Shown: positions 11,955 to 45,782 of the stretch, one piece after another
How the letters are laid out: each line of letters begins with the position of its first letter
Position numbering within the stretch: the first letter of the stretch is position 1
DNA from: Nitrospinota bacterium
GTDB taxonomy: Bacteria; Nitrospinota_A; UBA7883
Direction: 5' to 3'
Assembly (NCBI GenBank): GCA_029881335.1
Contig: JAOUMU010000002.1
Span: 1-64,000, forward strand
DNA length: 64,000 bases
Notes under the pieces: model-generated
The model's input: the letters and a program-made list of their open reading frames with translations, nothing else
Database searches by the model: none
Told to the model about the DNA's origin: nothing
Translations under genes and position numbers: made by a program

Positions 11955-12977
11955 ATGGCGCTGTTTACATCAGGCGCGCCTTTCGCCATGGCCCATGGCC
12001 CGGCCGCCGGCCATGGCCCGGGCTTGCAGGGAAGGAACCTTTCCGGAGCGAACCTGAGCGGCCAGGATTATTCCGGCGCGAGCATGCAGGGGGCGGACCT
12101 TTCCGGCGCCAATTTATCCCGAGCGGACCTGAGTATGGCCAACCTGCAGGGTGCGGACCTGACCGGCGCCAACCTGGAAGGAGCCGACTTGAGCCGCGCC
12201 AGGATGGAAGGCGCCACGGTGTCCGCCGCGCGCATGGCCGGGGCCATCCTTAAATACGCCAGCGCCCAGGGAGTGGACTTTAGCGACAGCGACCTTAGAC
12301 GGGTGGACTTTTCCCGCGCAATGATGCAAAGCGTGGATTTGCGCGGGGCGGATCTTTCCGCTGCCAGGATGTCCGATGTCCATCTGGAAGGAGCGAAGAT
12401 GGCGGAGGTTGTCATGCCTGGCGCTGACCTTTCCGGCGCCAACCTTCAAAGCGCCCGGCTTTCCCGGGCCAACTTGGCGGGGGCCGATCTTTCCGGCGCC
12501 AGGATGGAAGGGGCGGATTTTTCCAGGGCTGTCCTGGCGGGGGCGGACCTGTCTTTCGCCAACCTGCAAAGCGCCGATTTTCGAAAGGCGGACCTGCGGG
12601 GAGCCCTGATAGTTGGGGCCCGCATGGAGGGCGCGGATTACTCCGGGGCGGACATGTCCGGCGCGGTCATCATGGAGGCGGACCGGGACAAAAAGGCTGA
12701 TCCGAGGGATTTTTCCGGCGCCCACACCGATTTCACACACTTGGGCAGGGACGGGGATGAATACTTCATCCAGGCCAGGCTGGCGGCGGCGTGCCACAGC
12801 AAATACGCGGCGGCGGGCATATTGCGCCAGACCGCGGGGGAAAAACCCAGAGCGCCGGAGAAAAACGGTGTTTTGAACCATATCGTACATCTGGACAAGG
12901 ACCTGGAGGGCCATATCAGGAAAAAATGCGGCAAGGAAACAGTGGATTATCTTAAAGATGAGGGACTGCTGGAATAG
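11955..12977 (+). CDS. secreted pentapeptide-repeat protein
   Basis: Dozens of A(D/N)LSGA-type pentapeptide repeats are present. The start is placed at the in-frame ATG at 11955, which gives the signal-like MALFTSGAPFAMA. Longer upstream frames overlap ftsB. Confidence 0.6.
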   Translation: MALFTSGAPFAMAHGPAAGHGPGLQGRNLSGANLSGQDYSGASMQGADLSGANLSRADLSMANLQGADLTGANLEGADLSRARMEGATVSAARMAGAILKYASAQGVDFSDSDLRRVDFSRAMMQSVDLRGADLSAARMSDVHLEGAKMAEVVMPGADLSGANLQSARLSRANLAGADLSGARMEGADFSRAVLAGADLSFANLQSADFRKADLRGALIVGARMEGADYSGADMSGAVIMEADRDKKADPRDFSGAHTDFTHLGRDGDEYFIQARLAAACHSKYAAAGILRQTAGEKPRAPEKNGVLNHIVHLDKDLEGHIRKKCGKETVDYLKDEGLLE

Positions 12978-25764: not shown

Positions 25765-25840
25765 GCCCCCGTAGCTCAGGGGATAGAGCGCCGGATTCCT
25801 AATCCGTAGGTCGCAGGTTCAAATCCTGCCGGGGGTACCA
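25765..25840 (+). tRNA. tRNA-Arg (anticodon CCT) with encoded CCA
   Basis: Manual cloverleaf. Acceptor GCCCCCG / CGGGGGT (G1·U72). D-arm GCTC-AGGGGATA-GAGC. Anticodon arm CCGGA-TTCCTAA-TCCGT (U33, anticodon CCT, A37). T-arm GCAGG-TTCAAAT-CCTGC. Discriminator A73, then CCA. Confidence 0.8.
25795..25838 (+). repeat. attL: 44-bp core identical to 45277..45320 (anticodon loop to acceptor 3' end of tRNA-Arg)
   Basis: The exact 44/44 match ATTCCTAATCCGTAGGTCGCAGGTTCAAATCCTGCCGGGGGTAC was read directly. Confidence 0.9.
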
Positions 25841-26790: not shown

Positions 26791-27966
26791 TTGAAAACCT
26801 TAAGAAAGGGAAAAAGAACCGGAGAGTTTGTTCTCAACGCCGTTGGTGGTGAACAGGTTCGCGCCTATCTGCCGCCACCACTGCCGCCAGAACCATCGCT
26901 CAATCTGGAAAAACTCTATGGTCTGATGGAAGACGCCAACAGGTCATTAGGACGGCTTGACGGCATCGCCTCAATCCTGCCGGACACTCCGTTATTCCTC
27001 TACATGTATGTCCGCAAGGAAGCGCTGCTTTCTTCCCAGATCGAAGGAACACAATCGTCCTTGTCTGACCTCTTGCTTTTTGAAAGCGATGAGGCTCCCG
27101 GAGCGCCGCTCGATGACGTCCAGGAAGTCTCCAATTACGTCGCCGCCATGAATTACGGGCTGGAGCGATTACGCGGCGGGTTTCCGTTATCGCTTCGGTT
27201 GATAAAAGAAATCCATGGAATCCTGCTTGCGATGGGGAGGGGGGCGACCAAGCAACCTGGTGAATTCCGGAGAAGTCAAAACTGGATCGGTGGCACACGT
27301 CCGGGCAATGCAATCTATGTTCCGCCGCCGCCCGACAAGGTGCTCGGTTGCATGGGTGAACTCGAAAAATTTATCTATGAGGAAGAGTCAAAGCTTCCAA
27401 CGCTAATCAAGGCGGCCCTGATCCATGTACAGTTTGAAAGCATTCACCCCTTCCTGGATGGTAACGGACGTTTGGGCCGGTTGCTCATCACTTTCCTTTT
27501 GTGCGCGGAAGGGGTTTTAAGCGAACCGATTCTTTATCTCAGTCTCTTTTTTAAAACGCATCGTCGCCGGTATTACGATCTTCTGCAAGACGTGCGTGAA
27601 GAAGGCGACTGGGAAGGGTGGCTGGAATTCTTTCTAACCGGCGTGAAAGAAACATCAGATCAGGCGGCGGAAGCGGCCCGCCGAATTCTTGCCGTTTTCG
27701 AGCGGGATCGGCGCAAGATCGAGGACCTTGGCCGACCAACCGCATCCGCGCTCAGAGTGCATCAATATCTGCAATCAAAACCGATTCTGTCTGTACCTGT
27801 CGCGACCAAGGCACTGGGCCTGACCGCTCCTACGGTCAGGAAATCCGTTGAGCATCTTCTGGAGCTGGGAGTCATGCGAGAGATCACCGGAAAAAAACGA
27901 GGCAAGTTATTCGTCTACGACGATTATCTCAACCTCCTCAATGAAGGAACGGAGCCGTTGCGATAA
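26791..27966 (+). CDS. Fic/DOC family protein (AMPylase-type fold) with a C-terminal winged-helix domain
   Basis: 391 aa with the canonical Fic motif HPFLDGNGRLGRLL. Its stop overlaps the SNF2 gene start (TAATG). Confidence 0.9.
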   Translation: MKTLRKGKRTGEFVLNAVGGEQVRAYLPPPLPPEPSLNLEKLYGLMEDANRSLGRLDGIASILPDTPLFLYMYVRKEALLSSQIEGTQSSLSDLLLFESDEAPGAPLDDVQEVSNYVAAMNYGLERLRGGFPLSLRLIKEIHGILLAMGRGATKQPGEFRRSQNWIGGTRPGNAIYVPPPPDKVLGCMGELEKFIYEEESKLPTLIKAALIHVQFESIHPFLDGNGRLGRLLITFLLCAEGVLSEPILYLSLFFKTHRRRYYDLLQDVREEGDWEGWLEFFLTGVKETSDQAAEAARRILAVFERDRRKIEDLGRPTASALRVHQYLQSKPILSVPVATKALGLTAPTVRKSVEHLLELGVMREITGKKRGKLFVYDDYLNLLNEGTEPLR

Positions 27967-30900
27967 TGCTACTCGATAACAAAAAGAACGGAAAGGTGGG
28001 TGACAAACTACGAACTCACTTAGCCAATGGCTCAAAGCTATCAATCATATCCGGTCTGTTTTCGATCTACGGTTTTGAATCTCTGAAAAAGGAACTGCAA
28101 AATATAGACGCTTTACGCCTTGTCTTGTCACAAAATCCAATAAACAGTAATTTGCAGGAAGCGGGAATTGCCTCCCTATCCGGAGACAGGTTTGAGCTAC
28201 GGTTCAAGAACCAGCTCAATCAGGCACAAGTTGCTAAAGAATGCGCTTCCTGGCTTAAAGAAAAAGCTGAAATACGTATAGCAACAAACCCCATGGCCAT
28301 AAGCCAAAATCTCTTTCACGTTCAAGAGGGGAATGGGGAAGCAATAGCCATTCAAGGCAGTTCCGAGTTCACCAGCACCGGTTTTGGATACACGGAAACT
28401 GACCGGTACCACATGAATACCTGCTCAACGGGCAAGGCAAGTACGATAGCAATGCTGGAGTGGTTTGAAGCCATCTGGGATGATCCATCGGCTGTTCAGG
28501 ATGCAAAGGAGCTACTTTTACGTCAGCTTTCCAACCTGACAAAGGATCATTCTCCTGAATTTATCTACTTTCTTACCCTCTACAACCTGTTTAAGGACTT
28601 CATCGAAGACATTGACGAAGACAACATTATCAAGGCCAAAACGGGATTCAAGGAAACCATCGTTTGGAAAAAGCTCTATAAATTTCAGCGCGACGGAGTC
28701 CTGGGTGCAATAGACAAAATCGAAAAATACAATGGTTGCATTATCGCAGACAGCGTGGGCTTGGGTAAAACTTTCGAGGCGTTGGCCGTTATCAAATATT
28801 ACGAGTTACGCAATGATCGCGTGCTTGTGCTATGCCCCAAAAAGCTAAGGGATAATTGGACGGTCTATACAGTAAACGACAAACGTAATCTGCTCGCCAA
28901 GGATCGGTTCAACTACGACGTTCTCAACCATACTGACCTGACCCGCCTGCAAGGCCGCTCTGGCGAAATCAATCTCGAAACCCTGAACTGGGGTAACTAC
29001 GATCTGGTTGTGATTGATGAGTCTCATAATTTCCGCAACAGCAGCTCATCAAGGGAAGGTCTTACCCGTTATTCCCGCCTGATGAATGAAATTATCCTAT
29101 CTGGCGTTAAAACCAAAGTCCTTATGCTTTCAGCCACTCCTGTTAATAGCCGAATGAACGACCTGAAGAATCAGGTCGCTTTTATTGCTGAAGGACTAGA
29201 TTTTGCCTACAGCGACTTCGGCATTGTAAGTATTGAGCAGACCTTGAAGAAAGCGCAAACCCGGTTTAATCAATGGCTCAAGCTGGACGATGAAAGCCGG
29301 TCGGTCGAAGGATTGCTTGACAGTATGAACTTCGATTACTTTAAGCTTCTGGACATTTTGACAATTGCCCGGTCGCGCAAGCACATTGAAAAATATTACG
29401 ACATAGCGGAGGTAGGCGATTTTCCCGAACGTCTAAAACCGATAAACATTAAGGAAGATATCGATAAGGGAGGGAAGTTTCCGCCCTTGGAAGAGATCAA
29501 CCGGAAGATTCGAAAGCTAAATCTCAGCGCTTATTCCCCACTTAAATATGTGCGAACAGAAAAGCGAGAGGAGTATAACCGCAAATACGATATCGAAGTA
29601 AAAGGCGGATCAATCTTTCGACAGGTTCACCGAGAACAAAGTCTGATCCACCTTATGCGAGTGAACCTGCTCAAACGCATGGAAAGCTCGATAAATTCAT
29701 TCAGCCTCACTTTGGGAAAGCTTCAGGGAGAGGTGGATCGCCTGATGGAAAAACTTGAAAACCACAGTAGCGAAGACCTCGAGGAGCTGGGGATCGAGGA
29801 TATTGAAGTCGATGAACCTGAATTTGACCCCTTCCTTATTGGCAAAAAAGTAAAGGTGCTAATCAAGGATTTGGACGAAGTTCGTTGGAAACAGGACCTT
29901 GAGGATGACCATGACAAACTGACCGAACTGCTATCAGAAGCACGAGACATCGAGGCGAAGCGCGATGCCAAGCTATACCGGTTACGCGCAATGATCGAGA
30001 ATAAATGCCAAAATCCGATCAATGACGGCAACCGCAAGATCATCGTCTTTACAGCTTTTACCGATACCGCCAATTATCTCTATGAACATCTTGCCGAGTG
30101 GGCAAAGGAGACCTTGGGCGTGTATTCGGCTAAAATCACAGGAAGCGGCACCAACAAGACTACAATGCCAGGCATGGGGAGCAACTTCGATACTCTTCTC
30201 GCTTCCTTTTCTCCAATCTCGAAGGAGCGGAGCAAAATAGACGAAGGGGCAACTGATGAAATTGACCTCCTGATCGCCACGGATTGCATATCTGAAGGGC
30301 AAAACCTTCAGGATTGCGATTATCTGATCAATTACGATATACACTGGAATCCAGTCCGCATCATTCAACGCTTTGGCCGCATAGACCGTCTTGGCTCAAA
30401 GAATAAGGTTATCCAACTCGTCAACTTCTGGCCAAACATGGAGCTGGATGAATATATCAACCTGGAAGCGCGGGTAAGCGGCCGTATGGTTCTTCTCGAT
30501 ATTTCCGCAACTGGCGAGGAAAATGTAATCGAGCAGGACACCACTGGCAAGATGAACGATCTTGAGTATCGGAGGAAACAGCTTCATCAGCTCAAGGATA
30601 CTGTCATCGATCTGGAAGATATATCGGGTGGCGTTTCAATCACCGATCTTACCCTAAACGATTTCCGGATGGACCTGTCCGCATTCATGAAGGAGCACTT
30701 GGGCGAATTGGAGCAATCACCCACCGGGCTTTATGCGGCCACGACGCTAGATTCCGAACTGCAAAAGGAAGAGCTGGAACCTGGTGTGATCTTTTGCCTG
30801 AAAAACATTGGCAAGACGGTTGCAGAGGAGGAAGGCTACGCGCTTGCTCCCTATTACATGGTCTACATCACCGACGATGGCCAGGTGAAATACACCTTCA

Positions 30901-31184
30901 CCCAGTCAAAGAGGATTCTTGACGTTCTGAAAAAGCATGGCCATGGGCAAAAACAAGCAGATGCCAAGGCCATTGAGCGCATGAACAAACGAACCAGAAA
31001 CGGCAAAGATATGAGCCATTACCGTTCGCTTTTGGAAACCGCCGTCAGTAGTATCGTAGGCAAGTCAGAAGAGAAGGGCGTAGAAAGCCTGTTCAGTCGT
31101 GGGGGAACCAACCTGACCAAGGAGAGTTTTCAGGGGATGGAAGACTTCGAGGTCATCAGCTACATGATTGTGAATACGCCATGA
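27966..31184 (+). CDS. SNF2-family helicase/ATPase with an N-terminal degenerate PLD-like domain
   Basis: 1072 aa. SNF2 motifs are ADSVGLGKTFEA (I), DLVVIDESHNFRN (II) and C-terminal QRFGRIDRLGS (VI). The N-terminal 150 aa carry an HKD-like segment HVQEGNGEAIAIQGSSEFT, with HxK degraded to HxQ. Confidence 0.85.
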   Translation: MLLDNKKNGKVGDKLRTHLANGSKLSIISGLFSIYGFESLKKELQNIDALRLVLSQNPINSNLQEAGIASLSGDRFELRFKNQLNQAQVAKECASWLKEKAEIRIATNPMAISQNLFHVQEGNGEAIAIQGSSEFTSTGFGYTETDRYHMNTCSTGKASTIAMLEWFEAIWDDPSAVQDAKELLLRQLSNLTKDHSPEFIYFLTLYNLFKDFIEDIDEDNIIKAKTGFKETIVWKKLYKFQRDGVLGAIDKIEKYNGCIIADSVGLGKTFEALAVIKYYELRNDRVLVLCPKKLRDNWTVYTVNDKRNLLAKDRFNYDVLNHTDLTRLQGRSGEINLETLNWGNYDLVVIDESHNFRNSSSSREGLTRYSRLMNEIILSGVKTKVLMLSATPVNSRMNDLKNQVAFIAEGLDFAYSDFGIVSIEQTLKKAQTRFNQWLKLDDESRSVEGLLDSMNFDYFKLLDILTIARSRKHIEKYYDIAEVGDFPERLKPINIKEDIDKGGKFPPLEEINRKIRKLNLSAYSPLKYVRTEKREEYNRKYDIEVKGGSIFRQVHREQSLIHLMRVNLLKRMESSINSFSLTLGKLQGEVDRLMEKLENHSSEDLEELGIEDIEVDEPEFDPFLIGKKVKVLIKDLDEVRWKQDLEDDHDKLTELLSEARDIEAKRDAKLYRLRAMIENKCQNPINDGNRKIIVFTAFTDTANYLYEHLAEWAKETLGVYSAKITGSGTNKTTMPGMGSNFDTLLASFSPISKERSKIDEGATDEIDLLIATDCISEGQNLQDCDYLINYDIHWNPVRIIQRFGRIDRLGSKNKVIQLVNFWPNMELDEYINLEARVSGRMVLLDISATGEENVIEQDTTGKMNDLEYRRKQLHQLKDTVIDLEDISGGVSITDLTLNDFRMDLSAFMKEHLGELEQSPTGLYAATTLDSELQKEELEPGVIFCLKNIGKTVAEEEGYALAPYYMVYITDDGQVKYTFTQSKRILDVLKKHGHGQKQADAKAIERMNKRTRNGKDMSHYRSLLETAVSSIVGKSEEKGVESLFSRGGTNLTKESFQGMEDFEVISYMIVNTP

Positions 31185-31939
31185 CCACAGCTATCACCCT
31201 CGATCAGTTCTACCAGAATATGGCCCTGCCGGAAGCATGCGCCCTTGGAAAGCGAATATTCAAAAAGCAGTTTTACGACAACGGCCAGCTAAACGCCGCC
31301 GACAAGAAGGCGTTTGTCGAGGATATAGAAAGCATCGAATGGCGTTACACGCTAAAACCCTCAACGATCAATATCCCCAAGCACGAAGACGAAACCCATG
31401 AATATCTGGAAGTGGCCATTCTTCAGGTTCTGCTTTCGGCTATGGGGAAAAGCGCACGAATCGCAATGGCCATGCAGAAAGCCATTCCTTATCCGGTTCT
31501 GATTGTCTTCGTTTACGGCGGCCAGCTTTCGCTTAACGTGGCGGAAAAGCGAATCAACCGCGCCGACAGCAACAAGATCGTTGTTGAGACCGCACACGAT
31601 AGCGGATGGATATCCTTGCAGGAACCGGAACAATGGCAGACCGATTTCTTCAATGATTTTCAAGTCACTAATTATTCCTTTCGCAACTTCTTTGACTTCT
31701 ATAAAGATATGGTGAAGCGGATCATAGCCCTGAACTGCGCCTGTCATACCGGTCAATATTCGCTAGGTACAAGCGTTGATAGGGTGGAAGCTTTGCGGCA
31801 GATGGAAAAGTTACAGCAGGAACGGAACGAGACCAGCAACTTGCTCAAAAAAGAAAAGAACCTGGGAACACAGGTTCAACTGAACACACGGATCAAACAG
31901 ATTACGGATCGCATAGAAGCGATTAAGGGCGAATTATGA
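31181..31939 (+). CDS. hypothetical protein; recalled as a DUF4391-like family member habitually encoded between SNF2 helicase and type III methyltransferase genes
   Basis: 252 aa. It overlaps the SNF2 stop by 4 bp (ATGA) and ends 5 bp before mod. The family assignment is by recollection only. Confidence 0.5.
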   Translation: MTTAITLDQFYQNMALPEACALGKRIFKKQFYDNGQLNAADKKAFVEDIESIEWRYTLKPSTINIPKHEDETHEYLEVAILQVLLSAMGKSARIAMAMQKAIPYPVLIVFVYGGQLSLNVAEKRINRADSNKIVVETAHDSGWISLQEPEQWQTDFFNDFQVTNYSFRNFFDFYKDMVKRIIALNCACHTGQYSLGTSVDRVEALRQMEKLQQERNETSNLLKKEKNLGTQVQLNTRIKQITDRIEAIKGEL

Positions 31940-31943
31940 GGGG

Positions 31944-33821
31944 ATGCGCATGGAAAAAATGACAAAGCAGGACGGCAAAAGCCTCGATATGGTGAAGGGG
32001 AATCTAGAAGCTTTAAAAACCATCTTCCCGGAAGCTTTTACAGAGGATGGCGTTAACTTTGAAACACTGCGGCAGTTGCTTGGCGACGAGGTTGATGATG
32101 GCGAGGAGAAATACGGTCTCAACTGGCATGGCAAGAAAAAGGCCCGCCAGATCGCATTGACTCCTTCTCTGGGAACTCTGCGCCCATGCCCGGAAGAGAG
32201 TGTCGATTGGAACACCACACAGAACCTCTTTATCGAAGGGGACAATCTGGAAGTCCTGAAGCTCTTGCAGAAAAGCTACGCCAACAAGGTCAAGATGATC
32301 TATATCGACCCGCCCTATAACACAGGGAAGGAGTTCATCTATCCCGACAAGTTCCAGGACAATCTTGATACATATCTCAAATATACCGGTCAGAAAGATG
32401 ATGAGGGGTTCAAGGTCAGCTCCAACACGGAAAGCTCAGGCAGGTACCACACCAACTGGTTGAATATGATATATCCCCGCTTAAAGCTAGCGAGGAATCT
32501 TCTTCGGGATGATGGGGTCATTTTTATCTCAATAGATGATAATGAATCTACAAACCTAAGGATAATTTGTAATGATATTTTTGGAGAAGAAAATTTCATT
32601 GGGTCATTAATATGGAAACGCCGAGTGTCATCAGCAATGGCTGATAATAACGTTTCATCTGATCACGACTATGTAGTTTGCTATCAAAAAGGCAATCTAA
32701 AAGGGTTTGCTGGATTTGAAAAGGATTTCAAAAGATATTCCAACCCAGATAATGATAAAAGAGGTCCTTGGATTTCAGACAATTTGACTGTAGGTATGAA
32801 TTCGTCAATGCGCCCTAATCAAGCGTATGATTTAGTCGATCCAAAAACAGGTAGTACATACCCATATAATCCTAATCGTGTTTGGGCTTTTATTCCAGAA
32901 ACGATGAATAGAATGATTGCTGAAGGCAGGATTATTTTCCCGGACGATCCTGCAAAGCGTCCAATGCAAAAACGATTTCAGAATGAGCTTAATAATACAC
33001 ACAACCCTTTTTCTACTTTGATGCTGGATAGAGTAGGGTTAAATACAGAGGCTACCCGGACTATCCAAGATGTAATGGAAAGGAATGTTTTCGAGTATTC
33101 AAAGCCTGTTTCACTGCTTAAAACATTAGTTCCGCAAATATGTGTAAGCAAAAACGATATAGTTTTAGACTTTTTTGCAGGTTCGTGTGTAACTGCTCAT
33201 GCAGTTCTGGACTTAAACAAAGATGGAGATGATAATCTCAAATTTGTCATGGTTCAGCTTCCAGAACCATGTGATGAAAAGTCAGAAGCATTCAAAGGAG
33301 GATATAAAACCATAGCAGACATTGGTAAAGAACGTATCCGCCGGGTAGCCGCTAAAATCAAGGAGGAAACTCCGTTATATCAAGGCGATCTTGGATTCAA
33401 GGTCTTCAAGCTCGATAGCAGTAACATCCAAACATGGAATCCGGACAGGGATGATCTGGAACAGACGCTTCTGGATCATGCGGATCATCTTGTGGAAGGG
33501 CGGAGCGAAGAGGATGTTCTCTATGAATTGCTCCTGAAGCGTGGTGTTGATCTGACCGTACCCATTGAGCAAAAGGAAGTATCCGGCAAGGCTGTTTATA
33601 GCATCGGTTATGGAGTGTTGTTCACTTGCCTGGACACCTCCATCAGCCGGGATGATGTGGAAAGCCTCGCCCAGGGGATCGTCGCATGGCATGAAGAGCT
33701 GAAGCCGGAGAGCGACACACAAGTGGTCTTTCGGGACAGCGCGTTCGCCGATGACATTGCAAAAACCAACATGACAGCCATTCTTGAACAGAACGGCATC
33801 GCTCATGTGCGTAGTCTGTGA
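31944..33821 (+). CDS. mod: type III restriction-modification Mod subunit (beta-class N6-adenine DNA methyltransferase)
   Basis: 625 aa. Motif IV is IYIDPPYNTG. Motif I is FFAGSCVTAHAV, in the C-terminal part (beta-class circular permutation). The middle region is the presumptive variable target-recognition domain. Confidence 0.88.
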   Translation: MRMEKMTKQDGKSLDMVKGNLEALKTIFPEAFTEDGVNFETLRQLLGDEVDDGEEKYGLNWHGKKKARQIALTPSLGTLRPCPEESVDWNTTQNLFIEGDNLEVLKLLQKSYANKVKMIYIDPPYNTGKEFIYPDKFQDNLDTYLKYTGQKDDEGFKVSSNTESSGRYHTNWLNMIYPRLKLARNLLRDDGVIFISIDDNESTNLRIICNDIFGEENFIGSLIWKRRVSSAMADNNVSSDHDYVVCYQKGNLKGFAGFEKDFKRYSNPDNDKRGPWISDNLTVGMNSSMRPNQAYDLVDPKTGSTYPYNPNRVWAFIPETMNRMIAEGRIIFPDDPAKRPMQKRFQNELNNTHNPFSTLMLDRVGLNTEATRTIQDVMERNVFEYSKPVSLLKTLVPQICVSKNDIVLDFFAGSCVTAHAVLDLNKDGDDNLKFVMVQLPEPCDEKSEAFKGGYKTIADIGKERIRRVAAKIKEETPLYQGDLGFKVFKLDSSNIQTWNPDRDDLEQTLLDHADHLVEGRSEEDVLYELLLKRGVDLTVPIEQKEVSGKAVYSIGYGVLFTCLDTSISRDDVESLAQGIVAWHEELKPESDTQVVFRDSAFADDIAKTNMTAILEQNGIAHVRSL

Positions 33822-36800
33822 GCGGGGATTACTACATGAAATTACATTTTGAAGACAATCTGGAATATCAGCATGCGGCTATTGAGGCCGTTGCCGACCT
33901 GTTCAGAGGGCAGGATATTTGCCGGACGGAATTTACCGTTACTTACCAATCCGACGATGGCGCACAAGGCAGGCTTGGCATTGCAGAAAGTGAACTAGGT
34001 ATCGGGAACCGTCTTCAGCTCCTGGATGATGAAATACTGAAGAATTTGCACGATATCCAGCTCCGTAATGGATTGCCCCCGTCGGACTCCCTTGCCAATG
34101 GCGACTTCACCGTCGAGATGGAGACCGGAACCGGCAAGACCTATGTTTATCTGCGTACCATATTCGAGCTGAACAAGCGTTATGGCTTCACCAAATTCGT
34201 TATAGTCGTCCCTTCCGTGGCCATCAAGGAGGGAACCTACAAGACACTCCAGATCACGAGGGAGCATTTTGAAAACCTCTTTCCGATAGCCAAAGGCTAC
34301 GAGTATTTCCTCTACGACTCCGGCAAGCTTGGGCAGGTGCGCAATTTTGCAACCAGTCCTAATATCCAGATCATGGTTGTGACCGTCGGCGCGATCAATA
34401 AAAAGGACGTGAACAACCTCTATAAGGATAGTGAAAAAACCGGTGGCGAAAAACCGATTTATCTTGTCCGGGCAACCCATCCAATCATCATTGTTGACGA
34501 ACCGCAGAGTGTGGATGGTGGCATGAAAGGTCAGGGAAAAAAAGCTCTTGAAGCCATGAACCCGCTCTGCACATTACGTTATTCAGCAACCCATGTAGAT
34601 AAACATCACATGCTCTATCGCCTAGATGCCGTGGACGCATATGACCGTGAGCTGGTCAAACAGATCGAAGTGGCCGCTCTGGAAGTGGAAGGTGGCCATA
34701 ACAAGCCTTATGTGAAGCTGGTCTCAACGCACAACAAAAAAGGCTCGATCACGGCCAAGGTGGAGCTGGATGTTCAACGAGGAAAGAACATCCGCCGCGA
34801 CATAGTGACCGTGGAGGATGGAGACGATCTGGAGCAGGAAACTGGCCGTGCAATCTATGAGAATTTCCGAATAGGAACAATCACCTGTGGGAAGGGTAAT
34901 CAGTCCTTGGATATCAGCATGCCTGGCGGTGAATACACCATGCAGCCGGGTGAGGAGGTTGGCGGCGTTAATCCAGACGATCTAAAGAGGCTGATGATCC
35001 GCCGCACGATCAAGGAACACCTGGACAAGGAAATACGCTTTGCGGCGCAGAAGCGGGAAGTGAAAGTGCTTAGCCTGTTCTTCGTTGATAGCGTCGAATA
35101 TTACCGAAGCTACGATGAAGACGGGAATGCGGTGAAGGGAAAATACGCCCTGATGTTTGAAGAGGAATACCGCAAGCTGGCGAAACAGGCGGACTACCAC
35201 ACGCTGTTTGAGAAGATCGATCTCGATACCGATGCCAGTGATGTTCATAATGGTTATTTCTCAATCGACAAAAAGGGCGGATGGACAGAAACAGCGGAGA
35301 ACAATCAATCCAACAGAGACAGTGCTGAACGCGCCTATAACCTGATTATGAAGGATAAGGAAAAGCTTCTCAGCTTTGACTCTAAGCTCAAATTCATATT
35401 CTCCCATTCAGCCCTGAAAGAAGGGTGGGATAATCCGAACGTCTTTCAAATATGCGCTCTGCGTGACATGGGATCAGAACGCGAACGGCGGCAAACCCTT
35501 GGGCGCGGTTTGCGGTTATGCGTCAACCAAGAAGGCCTTCGGCTCCGTGGTTTTGACATTAATACGCTTACCGTAATCGCAACCGAGAGCTATGAGCAAT
35601 TTGCAGAGAACCTCCAGAAGGAAATAGAGGAGGATACCGGAATCCGGTTTGGCATCGTAGAAAAGCATCAGTTCGCCACACTGCCCGTGACTGCCGAAGA
35701 TGGTACGACGCAACCTCTGGGGGTGGAGAAATCAGAAAAAGTCTGGGATTTCCTGAAGGTGAATGACTATCTGGATAACCGAGGGAAAGTTCAGGACAGC
35801 TTGAAAACAGCGTTAAAAGAAAACACTCTGAAGATACCAGAGGAATTTAAGGAGCAGGAAGCAGGGATCAAAGGTATTCTGCGCAAACTTGCCGGGAAGC
35901 TGGATATCAAGAATGCGGATGAGCGTGTTACCGTCCGGACACGAGAGGCGGTACTGGAGAGTGAAGAGTTTAAGGCTCTATGGGATCGCATCAAGCACAA
36001 GACGACTTATCGTGTCGAGTTTGACAATGCGAAACTTATTGAGGATTGCGGAAAGGCCATTTTGGCCGGGCCACCAATTACCAAAACCCGAGCGCAATTC
36101 CGTATGGCGGATATTGCTATCGGGAAGGGTGGGGTGGAGGCTAAAGAAACAGCTACGTCGGGATTTACATCGATCAACGAAACCGATATTGAACTTCCGG
36201 ATTTACTGACGGATTTGCAGGACAAGACGAGCCTGAAGCGGCGGAGCCTGGTCGAGATTCTCACCGGTTGCCGTCGCTTGAACGACTTTATGAAGAACCC
36301 GCAGGAATTCATCGAACTAGCGACGGAGGCAATCAACAGGATAAAACGCCTTGCGCTTGTTGACGGCATTCGATATCGGCGTGTCGGTGACGATCACTAC
36401 TACGCCCAGGAGCTTTTTCAGCAGGAAGAGTTGACCGGATATCTCAAGAATACTCTGGAAACGCAAAAATCTGTTTATGAGCGTGTCGTTTACGATTCCG
36501 CCGGTGTTGAAAAACGCTTTGTCGAAGATTTGGAAGGGAACGAGGCGGTCAAAGTCTACGCCAAGCTCCCCGGCTGGTTCAAAGTGCCGACGCCGCTTGG
36601 CACATACAACCCTGACTGGGCGGTTCTGGTGGAAATCGACGGGCAGGAAAAGCTCTATTTCGTTGTCGAGACCAAGGGCAGCAATTGGTGGGACGATCTG
36701 CGCCACAAGGAAGGGGCCAAGATCAAATGCGGTGAAAAACACTTCGCCGTGCTGGCCGAAGGCGACAACCCGGCCAAGTACATTAAAGCCACCTGCGTCG

Positions 36801-36823
36801 ATGACATGATGAAGAATGGTTGA
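33818..36823 (+). CDS. res: type III restriction enzyme Res subunit (SF2 helicase plus C-terminal PD-(D/E)xK nuclease)
   Basis: 1001 aa. Walker A is METGTGKTY. DEAD-like motif II is IIVDEPQS. The C-terminal nuclease motif is YNPDW...VVETKGS. It overlaps mod by 4 bp. Confidence 0.88.
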   Translation: MSGDYYMKLHFEDNLEYQHAAIEAVADLFRGQDICRTEFTVTYQSDDGAQGRLGIAESELGIGNRLQLLDDEILKNLHDIQLRNGLPPSDSLANGDFTVEMETGTGKTYVYLRTIFELNKRYGFTKFVIVVPSVAIKEGTYKTLQITREHFENLFPIAKGYEYFLYDSGKLGQVRNFATSPNIQIMVVTVGAINKKDVNNLYKDSEKTGGEKPIYLVRATHPIIIVDEPQSVDGGMKGQGKKALEAMNPLCTLRYSATHVDKHHMLYRLDAVDAYDRELVKQIEVAALEVEGGHNKPYVKLVSTHNKKGSITAKVELDVQRGKNIRRDIVTVEDGDDLEQETGRAIYENFRIGTITCGKGNQSLDISMPGGEYTMQPGEEVGGVNPDDLKRLMIRRTIKEHLDKEIRFAAQKREVKVLSLFFVDSVEYYRSYDEDGNAVKGKYALMFEEEYRKLAKQADYHTLFEKIDLDTDASDVHNGYFSIDKKGGWTETAENNQSNRDSAERAYNLIMKDKEKLLSFDSKLKFIFSHSALKEGWDNPNVFQICALRDMGSERERRQTLGRGLRLCVNQEGLRLRGFDINTLTVIATESYEQFAENLQKEIEEDTGIRFGIVEKHQFATLPVTAEDGTTQPLGVEKSEKVWDFLKVNDYLDNRGKVQDSLKTALKENTLKIPEEFKEQEAGIKGILRKLAGKLDIKNADERVTVRTREAVLESEEFKALWDRIKHKTTYRVEFDNAKLIEDCGKAILAGPPITKTRAQFRMADIAIGKGGVEAKETATSGFTSINETDIELPDLLTDLQDKTSLKRRSLVEILTGCRRLNDFMKNPQEFIELATEAINRIKRLALVDGIRYRRVGDDHYYAQELFQQEELTGYLKNTLETQKSVYERVVYDSAGVEKRFVEDLEGNEAVKVYAKLPGWFKVPTPLGTYNPDWAVLVEIDGQEKLYFVVETKGSNWWDDLRHKEGAKIKCGEKHFAVLAEGDNPAKYIKATCVDDMMKNG

Positions 36824-36835
36824 GGGATATTAGAA

Positions 36836-37051
36836 ATGATGGAAGATAATAAGCCACTCAATGTGCAAGTCACCTCCAAAGAAACACCCACTCTTTTAAA
36901 TACTGACCGCCTTCGGTTGCACTTGAAAGAAGATGGATTGGCAGTGGCTTTACTTGACGTATGGCTTGATGATCCAAAACTCGATAATCAGGCGCGTATG
37001 CTTCAAATTATCGATAGTTATCATAAAAAAAAGCAAGTGAACGATGGCTAG
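36836..37051 (+). CDS. small hypothetical protein (71 aa), translationally coupled to the downstream ABC ATPase
   Basis: It starts 13 bp after the res stop. Its stop overlaps the ATPase start (ATGGCTAG). Confidence 0.5.
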   Translation: MMEDNKPLNVQVTSKETPTLLNTDRLRLHLKEDGLAVALLDVWLDDPKLDNQARMLQIIDSYHKKKQVNDG

Positions 37052-39566
37052 GCCCCAACTACGAAAAATTGAAATCCAGGGATTCCGTAGCTTTGGCTCT
37101 GGGAAACAATCATTTGAATTATCCCAAACTGTATCGGTCCTTTGGGGTGGGAATAGCCAAGGTAAAACGAGCCTTGCCGAAGCTATTGAATTCCTTTTTA
37201 GTGGCCAAATCGCCCGTCGCGAGTTGCTAGCCAGTACGAAGGACGAGTTTTCAGACTCACTCCGAAACGCTCATATCCCTAATACACTCCCTGTTTTTGT
37301 ATCCGCTGAAATAGTATGTGCTGACGGAAAAATAAGGCAATTAAAGCGCGTATTGAGCGAGGATTACAAGAAAGGAAACCATGGATGTATCAGCACACTG
37401 GAAATTGATGGACTTCTTTGCCTAGATGGCGATATTGAAACAAAATTGGGTATTAAGCTCTTCCAAGCACCCCTAAGCTCACCAGTGCTGGCCCAACACA
37501 CTCTTGGATATATATTTTCCGCTGGCCCAAATGATCGCTCCACCTATTTTAGGGCTGTGCTGGATACACAGGATTTAGAAGATTTCCGTGCGGCTATTGC
37601 CGCCCTATCAGAGTATATTCCCACACCAGTCCTAAAAGAAAATGGACTCTTGCATGCTATCGAGATCATACCAGAGCTGGGTAATACAAGCAGTGCCATA
37701 CGGAAATCCAAATCGCTGTCCAATTTAGAGAATAGTTTACTTGATGCAACAACTGCTCTCCTAACCAGCCTGGGGCTTAATCCACAAGATCAGCTTGCGG
37801 CACAGGCTATACAGATCGAGGAGGAGTTAATAAAAAGACGTGCAAAGTCATTTCCCCTCGATCTGTTTACCAAATCCTCCTTCGTGCCATGGGATAAGAA
37901 TTCAGGTAGCTTGGATCAACACATTAAAATATTTTACGAGGAACGCGCTAAAATTGACGTGGAAACCCGAAGACTTGTCGATTTATTCAAGATGGCTTTG
38001 CTATTGCCTGAAGCCAGTAATGAGCCTGAAGTAGCAAACTGTCCATTATGTGGCACGATTGACGCTTTAACGCCAAAGCGCATCCATGCGATACGCGAAC
38101 AGGTTAAAGATACAGAAATATACCAAGCGGCCGAGAAAGATATCTGTCAAACTCTACAAGCAATATCAACAAGGTTGTCTTCCTTGACTACAGCTCTGGA
38201 TTCCTCTTTGCCAAAATTTATTTTGGAACAACCACAGGCCAGACGTGCAAAAGGATTTACCGTAACCCGCATGCGTGACCTCGTGAATGATGCAGCCATG
38301 GTTACAAATTGGCTTGTTCCTACACGCCAAATTATCCGTGCTTCAGTAACCTTTAGAAAATCAATTATCGATGCACAAACAACTATCAATACTGTCATAG
38401 ACAGTCTAGATATATGGAACGATAAAACATCGATAACCCGTGCACTCGATAAAGTTAAATCAGCTCAAGATGTATATGCACAAAGCATCGATAATTATAC
38501 GCAAGTGGCAGAGTTGCTCGTCGGGCCACTGAAGAGTGCTGTTGACCAAAGCACGAACACTAAAGGCTGGGAAGAACTGGCCAAGCTGGCACACAGTCCT
38601 ACCGCCTTGTGGAATGCACTTGTAGAAACGGCCACGTATGAGCAGAAGAAGAAAGACCTTAACAGGGCACTCAAGGAAATTGACGCTGGCAATGGCAGGG
38701 TTGCGGATGATAAATTCGCCGATATGAGCACAGAAGTTAAAAAATGGTGGGATTATTTGCGACCTGATGAAACAACATTCTTTGATGCTGTGCAACGGCG
38801 TAGCACAAAAGCACGGCGAAATATTGACATTAAAGTCGGCCTTTCTGCTACTGAAGATCGTAGCAATCCGGCATTCCGAAATGCTGTTGCCGTATTTAGT
38901 CAATCGCAATTGCATTGCCTTGGTCTTTCGATGTTCCTAGCCCGAGCTGTGCAAGCTAAAACGGGATTCATTGTAATGGATGATCCTGTTTTGACTAGCG
39001 ATGACGATTTTAGACCTAATTTTGCTTCAACTGTCATCGAGGGTCTGTTGAATGAAGGGGTGCAATCCATAATTCTGACACAAGATCATTCGAGCTGGAA
39101 AGATATTGGACATCGTTGGGTACACCGCGATGTTGCCCAATTTCAAATTGTGTGCAACAACCCACTTTTGGGAACTGAAATCAGAAATCAGAATGATGGT
39201 CTTGCTACTATGATTGCAAGGGCACAGCCATTTGTTAAATCACACGACCTTGACCAACAAAAAACAGGTGCTACCCAAATACGATTATCTATCGAACGTT
39301 TCGGTAAAGAAATTCTTGTACGGAAAAGTCGCCTTGACGGTAACCAGATAGCTTCCATAACTGACTATGACGGAAAGAACTTCGGTGAATTCAGTAATTC
39401 TGTTTATGCCCTTCTCACAAAAGACCCTGCTCATCCAGGCAAGCTGAAGGCTGCGCATTCATACGTTACGCCAGGGGCACACGACGATACTCCTCCATCG
39501 TCAGGCAAGCTTTCAACGGCACTTGGAGACCTGAAGAAAATGAAGCGCGACTATCTAGACTCATAA
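37044..39566 (+). CDS. Rad50/SbcC-like ABC ATPase with a coiled-coil insertion and a CxxC zinc-hook motif; candidate RloC-like anticodon nuclease or other defence ATPase
   Basis: 840 aa. Walker A is GGNSQGKTS near the N-terminus. A long helical middle region contains CPLCG near residue 330. A signature-like QLHCLGLS and Walker B FIVMDDP are followed by an extra C-terminal domain of about 170 aa containing an R-x3-E...H pattern (IRLSIER ... DPAH). Confidence 0.6.
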   Translation: MARPQLRKIEIQGFRSFGSGKQSFELSQTVSVLWGGNSQGKTSLAEAIEFLFSGQIARRELLASTKDEFSDSLRNAHIPNTLPVFVSAEIVCADGKIRQLKRVLSEDYKKGNHGCISTLEIDGLLCLDGDIETKLGIKLFQAPLSSPVLAQHTLGYIFSAGPNDRSTYFRAVLDTQDLEDFRAAIAALSEYIPTPVLKENGLLHAIEIIPELGNTSSAIRKSKSLSNLENSLLDATTALLTSLGLNPQDQLAAQAIQIEEELIKRRAKSFPLDLFTKSSFVPWDKNSGSLDQHIKIFYEERAKIDVETRRLVDLFKMALLLPEASNEPEVANCPLCGTIDALTPKRIHAIREQVKDTEIYQAAEKDICQTLQAISTRLSSLTTALDSSLPKFILEQPQARRAKGFTVTRMRDLVNDAAMVTNWLVPTRQIIRASVTFRKSIIDAQTTINTVIDSLDIWNDKTSITRALDKVKSAQDVYAQSIDNYTQVAELLVGPLKSAVDQSTNTKGWEELAKLAHSPTALWNALVETATYEQKKKDLNRALKEIDAGNGRVADDKFADMSTEVKKWWDYLRPDETTFFDAVQRRSTKARRNIDIKVGLSATEDRSNPAFRNAVAVFSQSQLHCLGLSMFLARAVQAKTGFIVMDDPVLTSDDDFRPNFASTVIEGLLNEGVQSIILTQDHSSWKDIGHRWVHRDVAQFQIVCNNPLLGTEIRNQNDGLATMIARAQPFVKSHDLDQQKTGATQIRLSIERFGKEILVRKSRLDGNQIASITDYDGKNFGEFSNSVYALLTKDPAHPGKLKAAHSYVTPGAHDDTPPSSGKLSTALGDLKKMKRDYLDS

Positions 39567-40057: not shown

Positions 40058-42652
<2,595 letters not shown>

Positions 42653-42756: not shown

Positions 42757-42873
42757 GGTAGGTTTGTTTTTGAGGTAGGTTTATTCGAGCGTGTATTGGA
42801 GCGGGTTTTATGTGATACCTATCTTGAGAATATTTCGATCCGAGGTAGGTTTTAGAGGGAAAAGGTAGGTATT
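42757..42873. promoter_or_regulatory. four direct iteron-like repeats GGTAGGT(T/A)T plus a palindrome TACCAT-N8-ATGGTA upstream of the alpA-primase operon
   Basis: Copies were read at 42757, 42774, 42844 and 42864. The palindrome at 42741..42760 overlaps the first copy. Confidence 0.55.
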
Positions 42874-43597
42874 AATTTGGCGATTCTTGCTTTCGCGGAC
42901 GGCCATGCGGCTTTTTACCGGTTTGCCGAATAGTTTTTTTGAGCGTAATATCTGAATATTCGTGAACTGGAAACTGCGTTCTATCTTTATATTTGCCCTC
43001 CCGATAAAGGCGGATTAATTCGTCATGAGTTGAGCTGGGATTTTCCTTCACAAGGCGATTGAGAACACCAAAGCGTTCCGCCGCCTTGGCTTGGCGTGTC
43101 TGCTTCCCTTTGACCGGCGATTCGATGCGCCACATGGATTCCTGCGCCTGGGCTTTGCGATTCTTCGGAAAAAGGAAGGCGGGCTGTTGGTGAAGGCGCT
43201 TTGCTAGGTCTTTCAATATATCGCGGGATACCTTTGTTTCATACAGAAACATATCCTGCCATATCATCCTGCCATCGATGACTGTTGGTTGTCCTGCTTG
43301 CTTTCCTATGTTCAAAAAGGCCTTCGCTTGCAGGTTCATATGATTACTATATGGTCTTGCATAGTTTTCAGATAATGGCGATTCAGCATATTCGCGACTA
43401 TCCAAAGCGCCAATAATGAGGGAGAGTATTTTTCCGACACATAATGGGATTTCGCTCTCTCTCAAGGGCGATACTTTTATTCCTCCAATATGTTGTGGCG
43501 GCGCAAAACCACACCAAAGAAAACATACCTCGTATAGAGTAAAAGATCCATCAACCTTCAACTGTTCATAGTCATTATCGGTCAGTGGCTTCAGCAT
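42872..43597 (-). CDS. hypothetical island protein
   Basis: 241-aa ORF between the integrase and the alpA operon. No recognisable motif was found. Confidence 0.5.
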   Translation of the reverse strand: MLKPLTDNDYEQLKVDGSFTLYEVCFLWCGFAPPQHIGGIKVSPLRESEIPLCVGKILSLIIGALDSREYAESPLSENYARPYSNHMNLQAKAFLNIGKQAGQPTVIDGRMIWQDMFLYETKVSRDILKDLAKRLHQQPAFLFPKNRKAQAQESMWRIESPVKGKQTRQAKAAERFGVLNRLVKENPSSTHDELIRLYREGKYKDRTQFPVHEYSDITLKKTIRQTGKKPHGRPRKQESPN

Positions 43598-43811: not shown

Positions 43812-45074
43812 TTAATCAATCCCGCCCGCTTTCTTGAATGGCAGAACGTCCGCGCCACCTTTTCGCCCGGCCCGTGTAAGGATTGCGTCCGTTATCCTTT
43901 GCATGGGCGCCCTTAGCCTTTCCGCGTCGTGAACTATATAGCCCTCCGTCACGTCTCCGGCCTGCTTGTGGTTCAATAATCGCTTCAAAGCGTATCCGCT
44001 TATGTCCAGGCTTTCCGCCACCGTGGCGAATGTCCGCCGCAAGTCATGGACAGTAAACTTCACCCCAGATATGGCTGTTATCTTCTTCATTTGGCGCCGG
44101 GGCTCCATAAGGTGGCCGGTTTTGCTTCTATCTGGGAATACATATTCACTTGATAGGTTCGCACCACGGCGCCGGTCCAGCATTTCATAAACCATATCGC
44201 TCATGGGCAAGGTTAGCGGCTGGCTGTTCTTTGTGTCCGTTATGGTGAAGGTCTTTTCTGCCATATCAACATCGGCCCATTTCAAATGGGCCGCCTCTTG
44301 CCGTCTTAATCCCGTAAAGAGAATCAATTCCAGATAATCCGGGACAACTTCCGTTGTCTTTGTGCTTTCCATCAATTCGCTTCTTAGCGCGTCCAGAGCG
44401 TCAAGAAACACGCCAAGGCTTGAATCCTTAATGTAGGTCCGTTTCCTGTCCACTTTATACCAAGCTCGTGTTTCGGAAAGACGCTTGACGGGATTTACCT
44501 GCAATAGCGGCTGGCCATCGTTTGTTTCGTATTTTGCCATCGCGAAATTGAAAACCGCCCGCAATACCCTCATGGCCTGATTCCCCTGGGCGGGGCCGTG
44601 ATCCTTGGCGATATCAGCATGGCGTTGTTGAATCATGTTCTTAGTAATTCCCCTTACCTGCTTCCCCAGCCAATCGCCAAACCGCTTTTCCACTTGGTAC
44701 CTATAATCAAGAACTGTCCGGGGCTTTAATTGTTTCCGCGCCATCATATATTCATCAAACGCTTCCCTTAACGTCACCTGGGCCGCTCTGGCCGCTTGCT
44801 TTTCCGCCATGGGGTCCACGCCCTGGGTCATTTCCGAAAGCCGTTGTAATGCCATTGAGCGGGCTTGGTCCGGAGTTAATTTCCCATGCTTCCCTAAGGT
44901 AACCCTTACTGAGCGGCCTGATACGCGTGATTGAACAACATACACCTTCCCGGAAGGAACAACCTTTACACCGAAGCCTTGCAAAGCCTTATCCCAATAA
45001 AAGACCGATTTCCCCGGCTCTGTAACGGGGGGAAGACCGTCAACCGCCGATTTTGTGATCTTCATTTTCGCCAT
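43812..45074 (-). CDS. int: tyrosine-type site-specific integrase (P4-like, with an N-terminal DUF4102 arm-binding domain)
   Basis: 420 aa. The N-terminus is GLPPVTEPGKSVFYWDKALQGFGVKVVPSGKVYVVQSRV (Arm-DNA-bind type). The C-terminal catalytic region carries the R...HDLRRTF...Y pattern. Confidence 0.9.
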   Translation of the reverse strand: MAKMKITKSAVDGLPPVTEPGKSVFYWDKALQGFGVKVVPSGKVYVVQSRVSGRSVRVTLGKHGKLTPDQARSMALQRLSEMTQGVDPMAEKQAARAAQVTLREAFDEYMMARKQLKPRTVLDYRYQVEKRFGDWLGKQVRGITKNMIQQRHADIAKDHGPAQGNQAMRVLRAVFNFAMAKYETNDGQPLLQVNPVKRLSETRAWYKVDRKRTYIKDSSLGVFLDALDALRSELMESTKTTEVVPDYLELILFTGLRRQEAAHLKWADVDMAEKTFTITDTKNSQPLTLPMSDMVYEMLDRRRGANLSSEYVFPDRSKTGHLMEPRRQMKKITAISGVKFTVHDLRRTFATVAESLDISGYALKRLLNHKQAGDVTEGYIVHDAERLRAPMQRITDAILTRAGRKGGADVLPFKKAGGID

Positions 45075-45276: not shown

Positions 45277-45320
45277 AATTCCTAATCCGTAGGTCGCAGG
45301 TTCAAATCCTGCCGGGGGTA
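45277..45320 (+). repeat. attR: duplicated 3' 44 bp of tRNA-Arg
   Basis: Exact match to 25795..25838. It is followed by TTTTT instead of CCA. Confidence 0.9.
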
Positions 45321-45782
45321 CTTTTTCTACTGTATACCAAAAACGCCGCTTCTCCTCTCCGCCAATTCTGAAGACGGGGAACACGTAAGCGTTCCTCCAT
45401 GACAGAATCCACTTTCCACGGCGTCCACACCTCCTGCTGGTTAAACAGAAAGTGTAACGCATGACTCCGGTACGATATGTCACCTATGTCTCGGGTAGCT
45501 CAGAGACTCTTTACTCACACAAACGGGATGGTGCGGTCCTCCCCGGCTTATCCGATTTTCCAAGCCGCTGTTGTTCGCGTCCACCCCGATGGCGCAGACT
45601 ACGTGCAGGGCCCTCAAGAAAGAGCGCAACATCCTTTAAACTCCATGATAAATATGGTAGAATCCGCGCATTGCATCTCTGATGCTAGGTGGGGCGAATG
45701 GTTATCCAGGTCAAATGGTATTTCATTGCCGCGAGATTGGCGGCGATCCTCGTAGCCTGTGTGTATAATTATGGATGAAGTC

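Follow-up and report, generated by a model that had tools for sequence, protein, structure and literature searches.

A paired small gene and Rad50/LmuB-like ABC ATPase with a zinc-hook-like motif and a probable HEPN-like domain in a Nitrospinota genomic island

In a 64,000-nt stretch of DNA from a Nitrospinota bacterium (assembly GCA_029881335.1, contig JAOUMU010000002.1, positions 1 to 64,000; “the window” below), the res gene of a type III restriction-modification (R-M) system is followed on the same strand by two overlapping genes. To which family does the larger one, encoding an ATP-binding cassette (ABC) ATPase of 840 aa, belong, and what is the place of the 71-aa protein encoded in front of it? 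A first-pass annotation, made from the sequence alone, had seen in the ATPase the architecture of RloC, the wobble-nucleotide-excising, zinc-responsive anticodon nuclease (PMC2610378, PMC3458546). Here we report the architecture of the pair and its conservation, a HEPN-like fold at the C-terminus of the ATPase, the obligate pairing of the two genes and their location in mobile or defence islands. The reading that we favour, with considerable doubt remaining, is that the two genes make up a defence module complete in itself, of the “ABC ATPase fused to HEPN domain” kind, following the logic of RloC and carrying an ATPase of a lineage nearer to LmuB/SbcC.

A strict two-gene module

The small gene (36836-37051, + strand, 71 aa) starts 12 nt past the stop codon of res (36823), and the sequence GAGGGA lies 8 nt 5' of its ATG. 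The ATPase gene (37044-39566, + strand, 840 aa) overlaps it by 8 nt, ATGGCTAG. Both open reading frames (ORFs) were found exactly where the first-pass annotation had placed them, with all of the motifs that it quoted. When the interval separating res from the pair was scanned for consensus sequences, neither a convincing promoter nor a convincing terminator emerged, and for this reason the pair probably closes the operon in the window.

The window ATPase is identical to an “AAA family ATPase” of a Nitrospinota metagenome-assembled genome. A total of 235 ATPase homologues were detected, nearly all of them ~838 aa long, in Bradyrhizobium, Rhodopseudomonas, Sinorhizobium, Mesorhizobium, Sphingomonas, Omnitrophica and other hosts. 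Scanning one genome per species gave 37 ATPase loci (individual loci are referred to below by L numbers), the majority in Alphaproteobacteria and the remainder in Planctomycetota, Acidobacteriota, Methylomirabilales, Gammaproteobacteria and Bacteroidota. No relatives were found among the viral contigs of IMG/VR, and no plasmid in PLSDB gave a match at E≤1e-20.

A profile of the small gene matched directly upstream of the ATPase gene, ending 2-29 nt inside it, in 32 of the 37 genome loci and in L038-L042; across these 42 loci it matched nothing else. L046-L048 likewise have a called gene at this position (88, 82 and 69 aa). The five exceptions all have a damaged or cut ATPase 5' end: L004 and L025 are at contig ends, L037 has a partial match only, and in L028 and L032 the ATPase gene is interrupted, with the small gene 3-4 kb upstream of the remaining ATPase match. 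Because the small gene lies directly upstream in every locus with an intact ATPase 5' end, the two genes constitute a strict, obligate two-gene module that is translationally coupled, and the coupling of the 840-aa ATPase to the 71-aa ORF that had been proposed from the window alone is strongly supported. No third conserved gene was found downstream of the ATPase in the related loci compared, nor any other conserved neighbour. Note that the ATPase looks interrupted, decayed or fragmentary in L028 and L032, and also in L030 and L037, which suggests insertions into, or pseudogenisation of, a costly module.

The small proteins form a family of 63 clusters (52-129 aa), all annotated as hypothetical and devoid of Pfam domains. 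In their alignment, in which N22 and L30 are invariant, a variable and often acidic N-terminal tail leads into a conserved core of the form N-x-x-R-L-x-x-H-L-x3-[SG]-L-A-x-x-L-[VL]-x-A, which is followed by a second amphipathic stretch. Searches of Pfam, PADLOC, NCBIfam and the PDB with the small protein returned no match, the best PDB result (E 0.05) being an unrelated protein. In a Bradyrhizobium locus (L038), a 78-aa gene (12516-12752) is found 2 nt past the ATPase stop codon, with a KAP NTPase a few kb downstream; this 78-aa gene is not conserved elsewhere.

Head, arm, hook and C-terminal domain of the ATPase

Conservation was scored in an alignment of 67 sequences, consisting of the window protein and 66 full-length representatives that are 27-41% identical to it. 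A model of the full-length ATPase was built with AlphaFold2 (AF2) on 105 homologues, with a mean predicted local distance difference test (pLDDT) score of 88.1. In this model the ABC head is split into an N-terminal part (residues 1-135) and a C-terminal part (578-715). Inserted in the head is an almost wholly helical arm of ~415 aa (residues 156-572; 37509-38759), with block pLDDT values mostly between 80 and 97, and an extra helical domain (719-837) follows the head.

Walker A (GGNSQGKTS, residues 35-43; 37146-37172) has N37, G40 and K41 invariant in 67/67 sequences. The zinc-hook-like motif CPLCG (residues 333-337; 38040-38054) occupies a loop that separates helices 322-325 and 344-388, where the arm turns, and both cysteines, C333 and C336, are present in 67/67 sequences (P334 in 66). 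The ABC signature (FSQSQLHCLGL, residues 618-628; 38895-38927) has S619, S621 and Q622 invariant (67/67). Walker B and the D-loop, FIVMDDPVLTSD (residues 642-653; 38967-39002), are of the hhhhDD type, with D646 and D653 in all 67 sequences and D647 in 65. The H-loop equivalent, LTQD (residues 678-681; 39075-39086), was aligned with LLTHN of RloC by hhalign; across the 67 sequences, position 680 is H in 31, Q in 21, Y in 7 and F in 5. The window protein, like its close relatives, has Gln at residue 680, and the kinetics of ATP hydrolysis may vary among subclades.

The architecture described in the first-pass annotation (an ABC head, a coiled-coil insertion with CxxC, and an additional C-terminal domain with R-x3-E) was therefore recovered in both model and alignment, including the invariance of CxxC among homologues and the placement of CPLCG at the turn of the helical arm. 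This conservation is a clear sign of selection on the zinc-hook-like motif and on a working ATPase site. With 235 homologues, the CxxC in 67/67 sequences and a small ORF that represents a family of 63 clusters, the gene pair is not a chance ORF call.

The extra domain (residues 719-840; 39198-39563) is basic, with an isoelectric point (pI) of 9.2. It had been given a length of about 170 aa; it is ~120 aa long, because residues 670-715 complete the ABC head in the AF2 model. When residues 700-840 were modeled separately, the pLDDT was 85.9. The domain forms an up-and-down bundle of four helices, with an insert separating helices 2 and 3, as is characteristic of HEPN domains. According to a survey of HEPN families (PMC3710099), helix 2 bears a conserved acidic residue, usually in the form E-x3-[KR], the catalytic His is found where helix 3 ends or in the loop leading to helix 4, and some families retain the His with basic residues supplied from elsewhere. 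In the window protein, RLSIERFGK (residues 747-755; 39282-39308) lies in the long second helix (736-764) and contains R747-x3-E751-x3-K755, in which all three residues are invariant (67/67), so that E-x3-[KR] is present in every sequence; the segment aligns with MRRIIENYFK of RloC. Ahead of the last helix, the loop PGAHDDTPP (39471-39497), which aligns with WINDGSH of RloC, carries H813 (67/67), D814 (65/67) and P818 (65/67); H813 is placed between helix 797-808 and the last helix (820-837). In the model, the positions of E751-x3-K755 and of H813 both fit a HEPN active site. G799 is also invariant (67/67), and R752 is found in 61 of the 67 sequences. The His of DPAH (residues 794-797), which had been put forward as catalytic, varies: H797 is His in 36/67 sequences, Glu in 23 and Asp in 7, leaving H813 as the invariant His.

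Structure comparison is more informative for this domain than sequence methods. Foldseek, run with the domain model against the PDB, ranked two HEPN proteins at the top (E ~0.3), followed by unrelated four-helix bundles, and gave no match at E≤1e-3. We therefore regard the HEPN assignment as probable, not certain. The profile searches against nuclease families that had been proposed for the C-terminal region were run with residues 686-840 and 601-840, and no domain family was found in Pfam, NCBIfam or PADLOC even at E≤10. Searching 1.84 billion representative proteins with a profile of the C-terminal domain (hmmsearch) retrieved 231 proteins, and all 150 of these that were listed have the same architecture or are fragments. 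Because the listed matches are of this kind, they provide no bridge to PrrC or RloC.

Comparison with known systems

RloC is defined by its ABC motifs, a coiled-coil insert with CxxC and an Arg-X3-Glu-X36-52-His triad in which Ser often precedes the His (PMC2610378). The design of an ABC ATPase with hook and HEPN domain is thus already known from RloC, and the likeness to our family extends to several details. Both have an ABC head, a coiled-coil insert with a central CxxC and then a C-terminal domain of ~120-150 aa, classed as a divergent HEPN; both have a Walker B of the form hhhhDD-P followed by an x-S-x-D D-loop, and both conserve R-x3-E-x3-K and a later G-x-H. The size range of RloC (658-897 aa) includes the window ATPase, and both families are occasionally linked to type I or type III R-M, ArdC or integrase genes, the R-M link being facultative in both. 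The differences are that the invariant His is 61 residues past the Glu in the family and 36-52 in RloC, and that RloC acts as one polypeptide with an internal switch, whereas the family has an obligate small upstream partner in every assessable locus.

The RloC of the Shewanella sp. ANA-3 plasmid NC_008573 (746 aa; L045:10255-12495, - strand; PMC2610378 Table S1) was used as a positive control. It matched Pfam AAA_13 (PF13166) over its full length at 3.9e-178, the PADLOC model PDC-S06 at 2.9e-266 and the PrrC model at 1.6e-13. Upstream of this gene, 757 nt contain no annotated gene. PADLOC recognised this bona fide RloC only as the candidate system PDC-S06; given its score, PDC-S06 corresponds to RloC in that library. 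The ANA-3 gene adjoins a type I R-M locus and a Qat system.

Membership of the window protein in RloC, as suggested by the first-pass annotation, was not borne out, since it matches neither control model as a whole; canonical RloC was rejected on this full-length profile test against AAA_13 and PDC-S06. What was obtained was a weak match to PDC-S06 confined to the signature/Walker B region (1e-5), and RloC-type models were matched by 11 of 26 family members tested (best, PDC-S06 at 3.3e-8). In a full-length hhalign comparison of 105 family sequences with 31 RloC sequences, the alignment was significant solely from Walker B to the H-loop (E 2.5e-4, probability 43%), where the Walker B region of the window protein aligns with VVVIDDPISSLD of RloC. 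With the C-terminal domain only, the best local alignment paired lR-AiERFcKel with MRRIiENYFKIL (P=0.26), and a deeper comparison of 102 family sequences with 119 RloC sequences paired lnPG-H813 with WINDGSH694 (P=0.013). A relaxed co-linear alignment sets R747/E751/K755 on R651/E655/K659 of RloC and H813 on H694, for which an insertion of ~23 residues in the window family is needed. An R-x3-E-x3-K...G-x-H pattern is common to the family and RloC, and the alignment is suggestive without amounting to proof.

PrrC likewise resembles the favoured reading, in that it carries, C-terminal to an ABC ATPase, an RNase of the HEPN type whose triad is R-x3-E...H, and in that it backs up a linked restriction system. 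It is ~400 aa long, has no coiled coil or hook and always resides inside a type Ic hsd locus, whereas the window protein has 840 aa with a 415-aa arm, and its neighbour is a type III rather than a type I R-M system. PrrC was rejected for its size, for the lack of an hsd locus and for the unmatched PADLOC PrrC model.

On balance, we consider it fairly probable, by analogy, that the ATPase is a RloC-like, DNA-sensing enzyme in control of the HEPN RNase fused to it, and that the small protein acts as a regulator. Several results weigh against this. The window ATPase gives no match to AAA_13 at E≤0.01 and none to the PADLOC PrrC model, and hhalign probabilities for the C-terminal domain against RloC are 0.2-3.4%; as far as sequence comparison goes, the link to PrrC or RloC is not statistically solid. 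R747-X3-E751 is invariant, and the two candidate His residues differ in spacing: H797, at X45 and often after Ser, has the spacing published for RloC and is not conserved (36/67), and H813, at X61, is beyond the published X36-52. The canonical HEPN R-x4-6-H is missing, with no conserved basic residue 4-6 positions before H813; R747 may stand in for the absent Arg, as is thought for the Arg of the PrrC/RloC triad. Finally, R-M linkage is seen in a minority of loci only, many having no R-M genes within 10 kb.

The ATPase moiety points to other relatives. In Foldseek searches of the PDB, the full-length model matched Rad50 (7zr1, 1.8e-13), SMC heads, JetC, MukB and RecF, and a PDB sequence search with the family profile gave P-loop matches only (SMC, Rad50 and RecF). 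Pfam reported only SMC_N, at its cut-off, and AAA_23, and NCBIfam only weak P-loop matches far under their cut-offs. Among defence families, LmuB models were the best match in 26/26 members (best 3.5e-22). These matches are weak, at ~55-65 bits with model coverage of 4-585/611. Because all 26 members match LmuB best and only 11 match RloC-type models, the ATPase moiety is placed nearer to the LmuB/SbcC lineage. By profile comparison, then, the family stands apart from RloC, its ATPase is nearer to LmuB, and its obligate small subunit is without counterpart in RloC or PrrC.

Long LmuB proteins have an hhhhDD Walker B and a single CxxC (PMC12663957); note that the RloC control also has an hhhhDD Walker B. 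The long type of Lamassu (LmuA-LmuC-LmuB) therefore shares with the family an SbcC/Rad50-like ATPase with these two features, a small gene directly before the ATPase gene and a location in defence islands. In Lamassu operons it is the LmuC gene that precedes lmuB, and the C-terminal domains of short LmuA are helical bundles (PMC12663957). The pair might accordingly be a Lamassu-like, DNA-directed system, in which a diverged long LmuB acts with an equivalent of LmuC. The C-terminal bundle would then be non-catalytic and serve in docking or oligomerisation, comparable to the C-terminal helical domain of LmuA, and the effector would work in trans, for example as the neighbouring restriction enzyme or another nuclease. 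The gene order, the two LmuB features, the rank of the LmuB models and the generic helical bundle that Foldseek sees in the C-terminal domain all agree with this. We nevertheless regard it as improbable. Lamassu has a separate LmuA, while the family has no LmuA gene and carries its presumed effector as a C-terminal fusion to the ATPase; in the related loci, neither an LmuA effector nor any conserved flanking gene other than the small gene was found, and the neighbours vary by locus. Four invariant polar residues (R, E, K and H) in a small domain suit a catalytic site better than a docking surface. The small protein (~65-90 aa) has no detectable similarity to LmuC and matched no LmuC or other PADLOC model, and the LmuB scores are low (~65 bits).

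Rad50/SbcC, working with Mre11/SbcD, has the same head-arm-hook arrangement and includes the best structural matches to the full-length model. The family, in contrast, lacks a nuclease partner, has a shorter arm and an additional domain at the C-terminus, and is found on mobile islands. No Mre11/SbcD gene was found in the window or in related loci, and SbcC was ruled out for want of an SbcD partner. OLD/Gabija was ruled out for want of a TOPRIM partner, and the matches of GajA models are confined to the N-terminal P-loop region (residues 5-63). The earlier statement that neither type of partner is present needs one amendment: neither is a conserved partner, and no nuclease gene is conserved next to the pair in orthologues, but a Toprim gene does lie nearby (40058-42148, - strand), as the DUF3987 primase of the island. 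The likeness in fold and motifs to Rad50, SMC and RecF would also be expected of a housekeeping or element-encoded SMC-like protein for DNA repair or maintenance, acting in the manner of SbcC/RecN with no role in defence. This explanation is very hard to reconcile with a protein that has no Mre11/SbcD partner and carries an extra HEPN-like domain with invariant polar residues, and that occurs in islands beside defence genes and is sporadic and rare (231 representative clusters in 1.84 billion proteins); we give it very little weight.

Island context and proposed mode of action

The pair is carried on a 19.5-kb island bounded by a perfect 44-bp direct repeat (25795-25838 and 45278-45321). The first copy is the 3' part of a tRNA-Arg(CCT) gene (25765-25840), a tyrosine integrase gene (43812-45074, - strand) is found at the far end, and the G+C content is 0.43-0.52 inside the island versus ~0.55-0.60 outside. 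The operon has the order Fic/DOC, HKD+SNF2 helicase, DUF4391, type III Mod, type III Res, small gene, ATPase. The co-oriented genes directly upstream (27966-36823, + strand), which were identified by library matches, are context and not part of the module; they encode the HKD+SNF2 helicase (PADLOC C3a139; 27966-31184), DUF4391 (31181-31939), Mod (31944-33821) and Res (33818-36823). The Fic/DOC protein in front of them (26791-27966, + strand, 391 aa) matches Fic_N (3.4e-29) and Fic (1.7e-20) and has a weak C-terminal helix-turn-helix (HTH), and the stop codon of its gene overlaps the start of the SNF2 helicase gene. For some RloC-like genes, a “three-level defence” neighbourhood of R-M, DOC toxin and ABC-HEPN has been described (PMC3710099), and the window shows this same combination.

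Beyond the pair, on the - strand, are the DUF3987/Toprim primase-like gene (40058-42148), a 94-aa CHC2 zinc-finger ORF that overlaps it (42145-42429), and a 77-aa HTH_17 (AlpA-like) ORF (42419-42652). The segment 40058-42652 is the replication/excision module of the island, in which the zinc finger of the primase is encoded as a separate gene. A 241-aa ORF between HTH_17 and the integrase (42872-43597, - strand) gave no match in Pfam, PADLOC or NCBIfam.

In Rhodopseudomonas sp. P1 (L047 1-7851), the same SNF2-DUF4391-Mod-Res set is present upstream, with Res 71% and SNF2 56% identical, and a GmrSD gene is inserted between the four-gene set and the ATPase pair. Type III R-M genes lie upstream on the same strand in the window, L009, L010, L042 and L047, and downstream in L031. 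The position directly after res, to which the first-pass annotation attached importance, thus holds in the window and R-M linkage recurs elsewhere, although it is facultative. Other genes near the pair in other loci encode SIR2, GmrSD, Hachiman, NERD, KAP NTPase, ArdC, relaxase and integrase.

By analogy with RloC, in which the hook and a DNA-dependent ATPase gate the nuclease (PMC3458546), and with Lamassu, in which DNA-end sensing frees an effector (PMC12663957), we infer a putative RNase activity, its RNA target, a DNA trigger and a role for the partner. The 840-aa protein would dimerise via its Cys-x-x-Cys zinc hook and ATP-engaged heads, and the dimer would keep watch over DNA, with ends or breaks as the probable signal. 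Once the ATPase cycle, or the engagement of the heads, had changed, the pair of basic HEPN-like domains at the C-termini would be licensed to cut RNA, with R747, E751, K755 and H813 as predicted active-site residues. The likeliest targets would be tRNA anticodon loops, as in PrrC and RloC; translation would stop and the infection would abort. The small protein would be a stoichiometric regulatory subunit, and may be an antitoxin-like brake on the RNase or, alternatively, an adaptor on the arm or head resembling LmuC or the C-terminus of SbcD. In the window, the pair could plausibly serve as a second line of defence behind restriction.

A small gene that comes first and overlaps the next gene at stop and start is also typical of type II toxin-antitoxin pairs. 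The pair could be read as such an addiction module, in which the small protein is a labile antitoxin masking the HEPN RNase and the ATPase assembles or tunes the toxin instead of sensing DNA, stabilising the island more than acting against phage. In keeping with this, the module is always located in mobile or variable DNA, protein antitoxins are common among HEPN toxin systems (PMC3710099), and the small proteins are mildly acidic (median pI 5.6, versus 9.2 for the basic HEPN-like domain). A 700-aa ATPase with invariant catalytic motifs and a hook would be a large investment for a simple toxin, however, and most loci examined have defence-gene neighbours. Nor is a DNA-binding domain detectable in the small protein, as it would be in a typical autoregulating antitoxin. 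An addiction role is therefore unlikely in our estimation.

Returning to the favoured reading of a DNA-sensing ATPase with a fused HEPN RNase, a bolder version of its history may be offered tentatively, and we think it doubtful as it stands. The family could be a second, independent invention of the RloC design, in which an ATPase of the SbcC/Lamassu lineage gained a fused HEPN RNase and kept a gating subunit resembling LmuC or the tail of SbcD, giving a two-component switch from DNA damage to translation arrest that was repeatedly placed as a fail-safe behind type III restriction operons.

The family is named in no library that we searched: PADLOC-DB v2.0 (2023) gives only weak matches to the ATPases of other systems, Pfam only the generic SMC_N and AAA_23, and the source annotations of the ATPase proteins read “AAA family ATPase” or “hypothetical”. 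In the literature searched, which did not include the ABC ATPase classification of Krishnan et al. 2020, no description of the family was found. Current defence catalogues miss the family, which amounts to an annotation gap. RloC and PrrC couple DNA surveillance to translation shut-off, and the Rad50-like sensor of Lamassu frees a separate effector; the family stands between both, combining a Lamassu-like ATPase, a RloC-like fused putative RNase domain and an obligate small subunit. That subunit would offer a genetically separable handle on the control of a HEPN nuclease by an SMC-like ATPase, and the recurrence of the pair downstream of SNF2/DUF4391/type III R-M operons makes the proposed back-up of restriction by a suicidal RNase directly testable.

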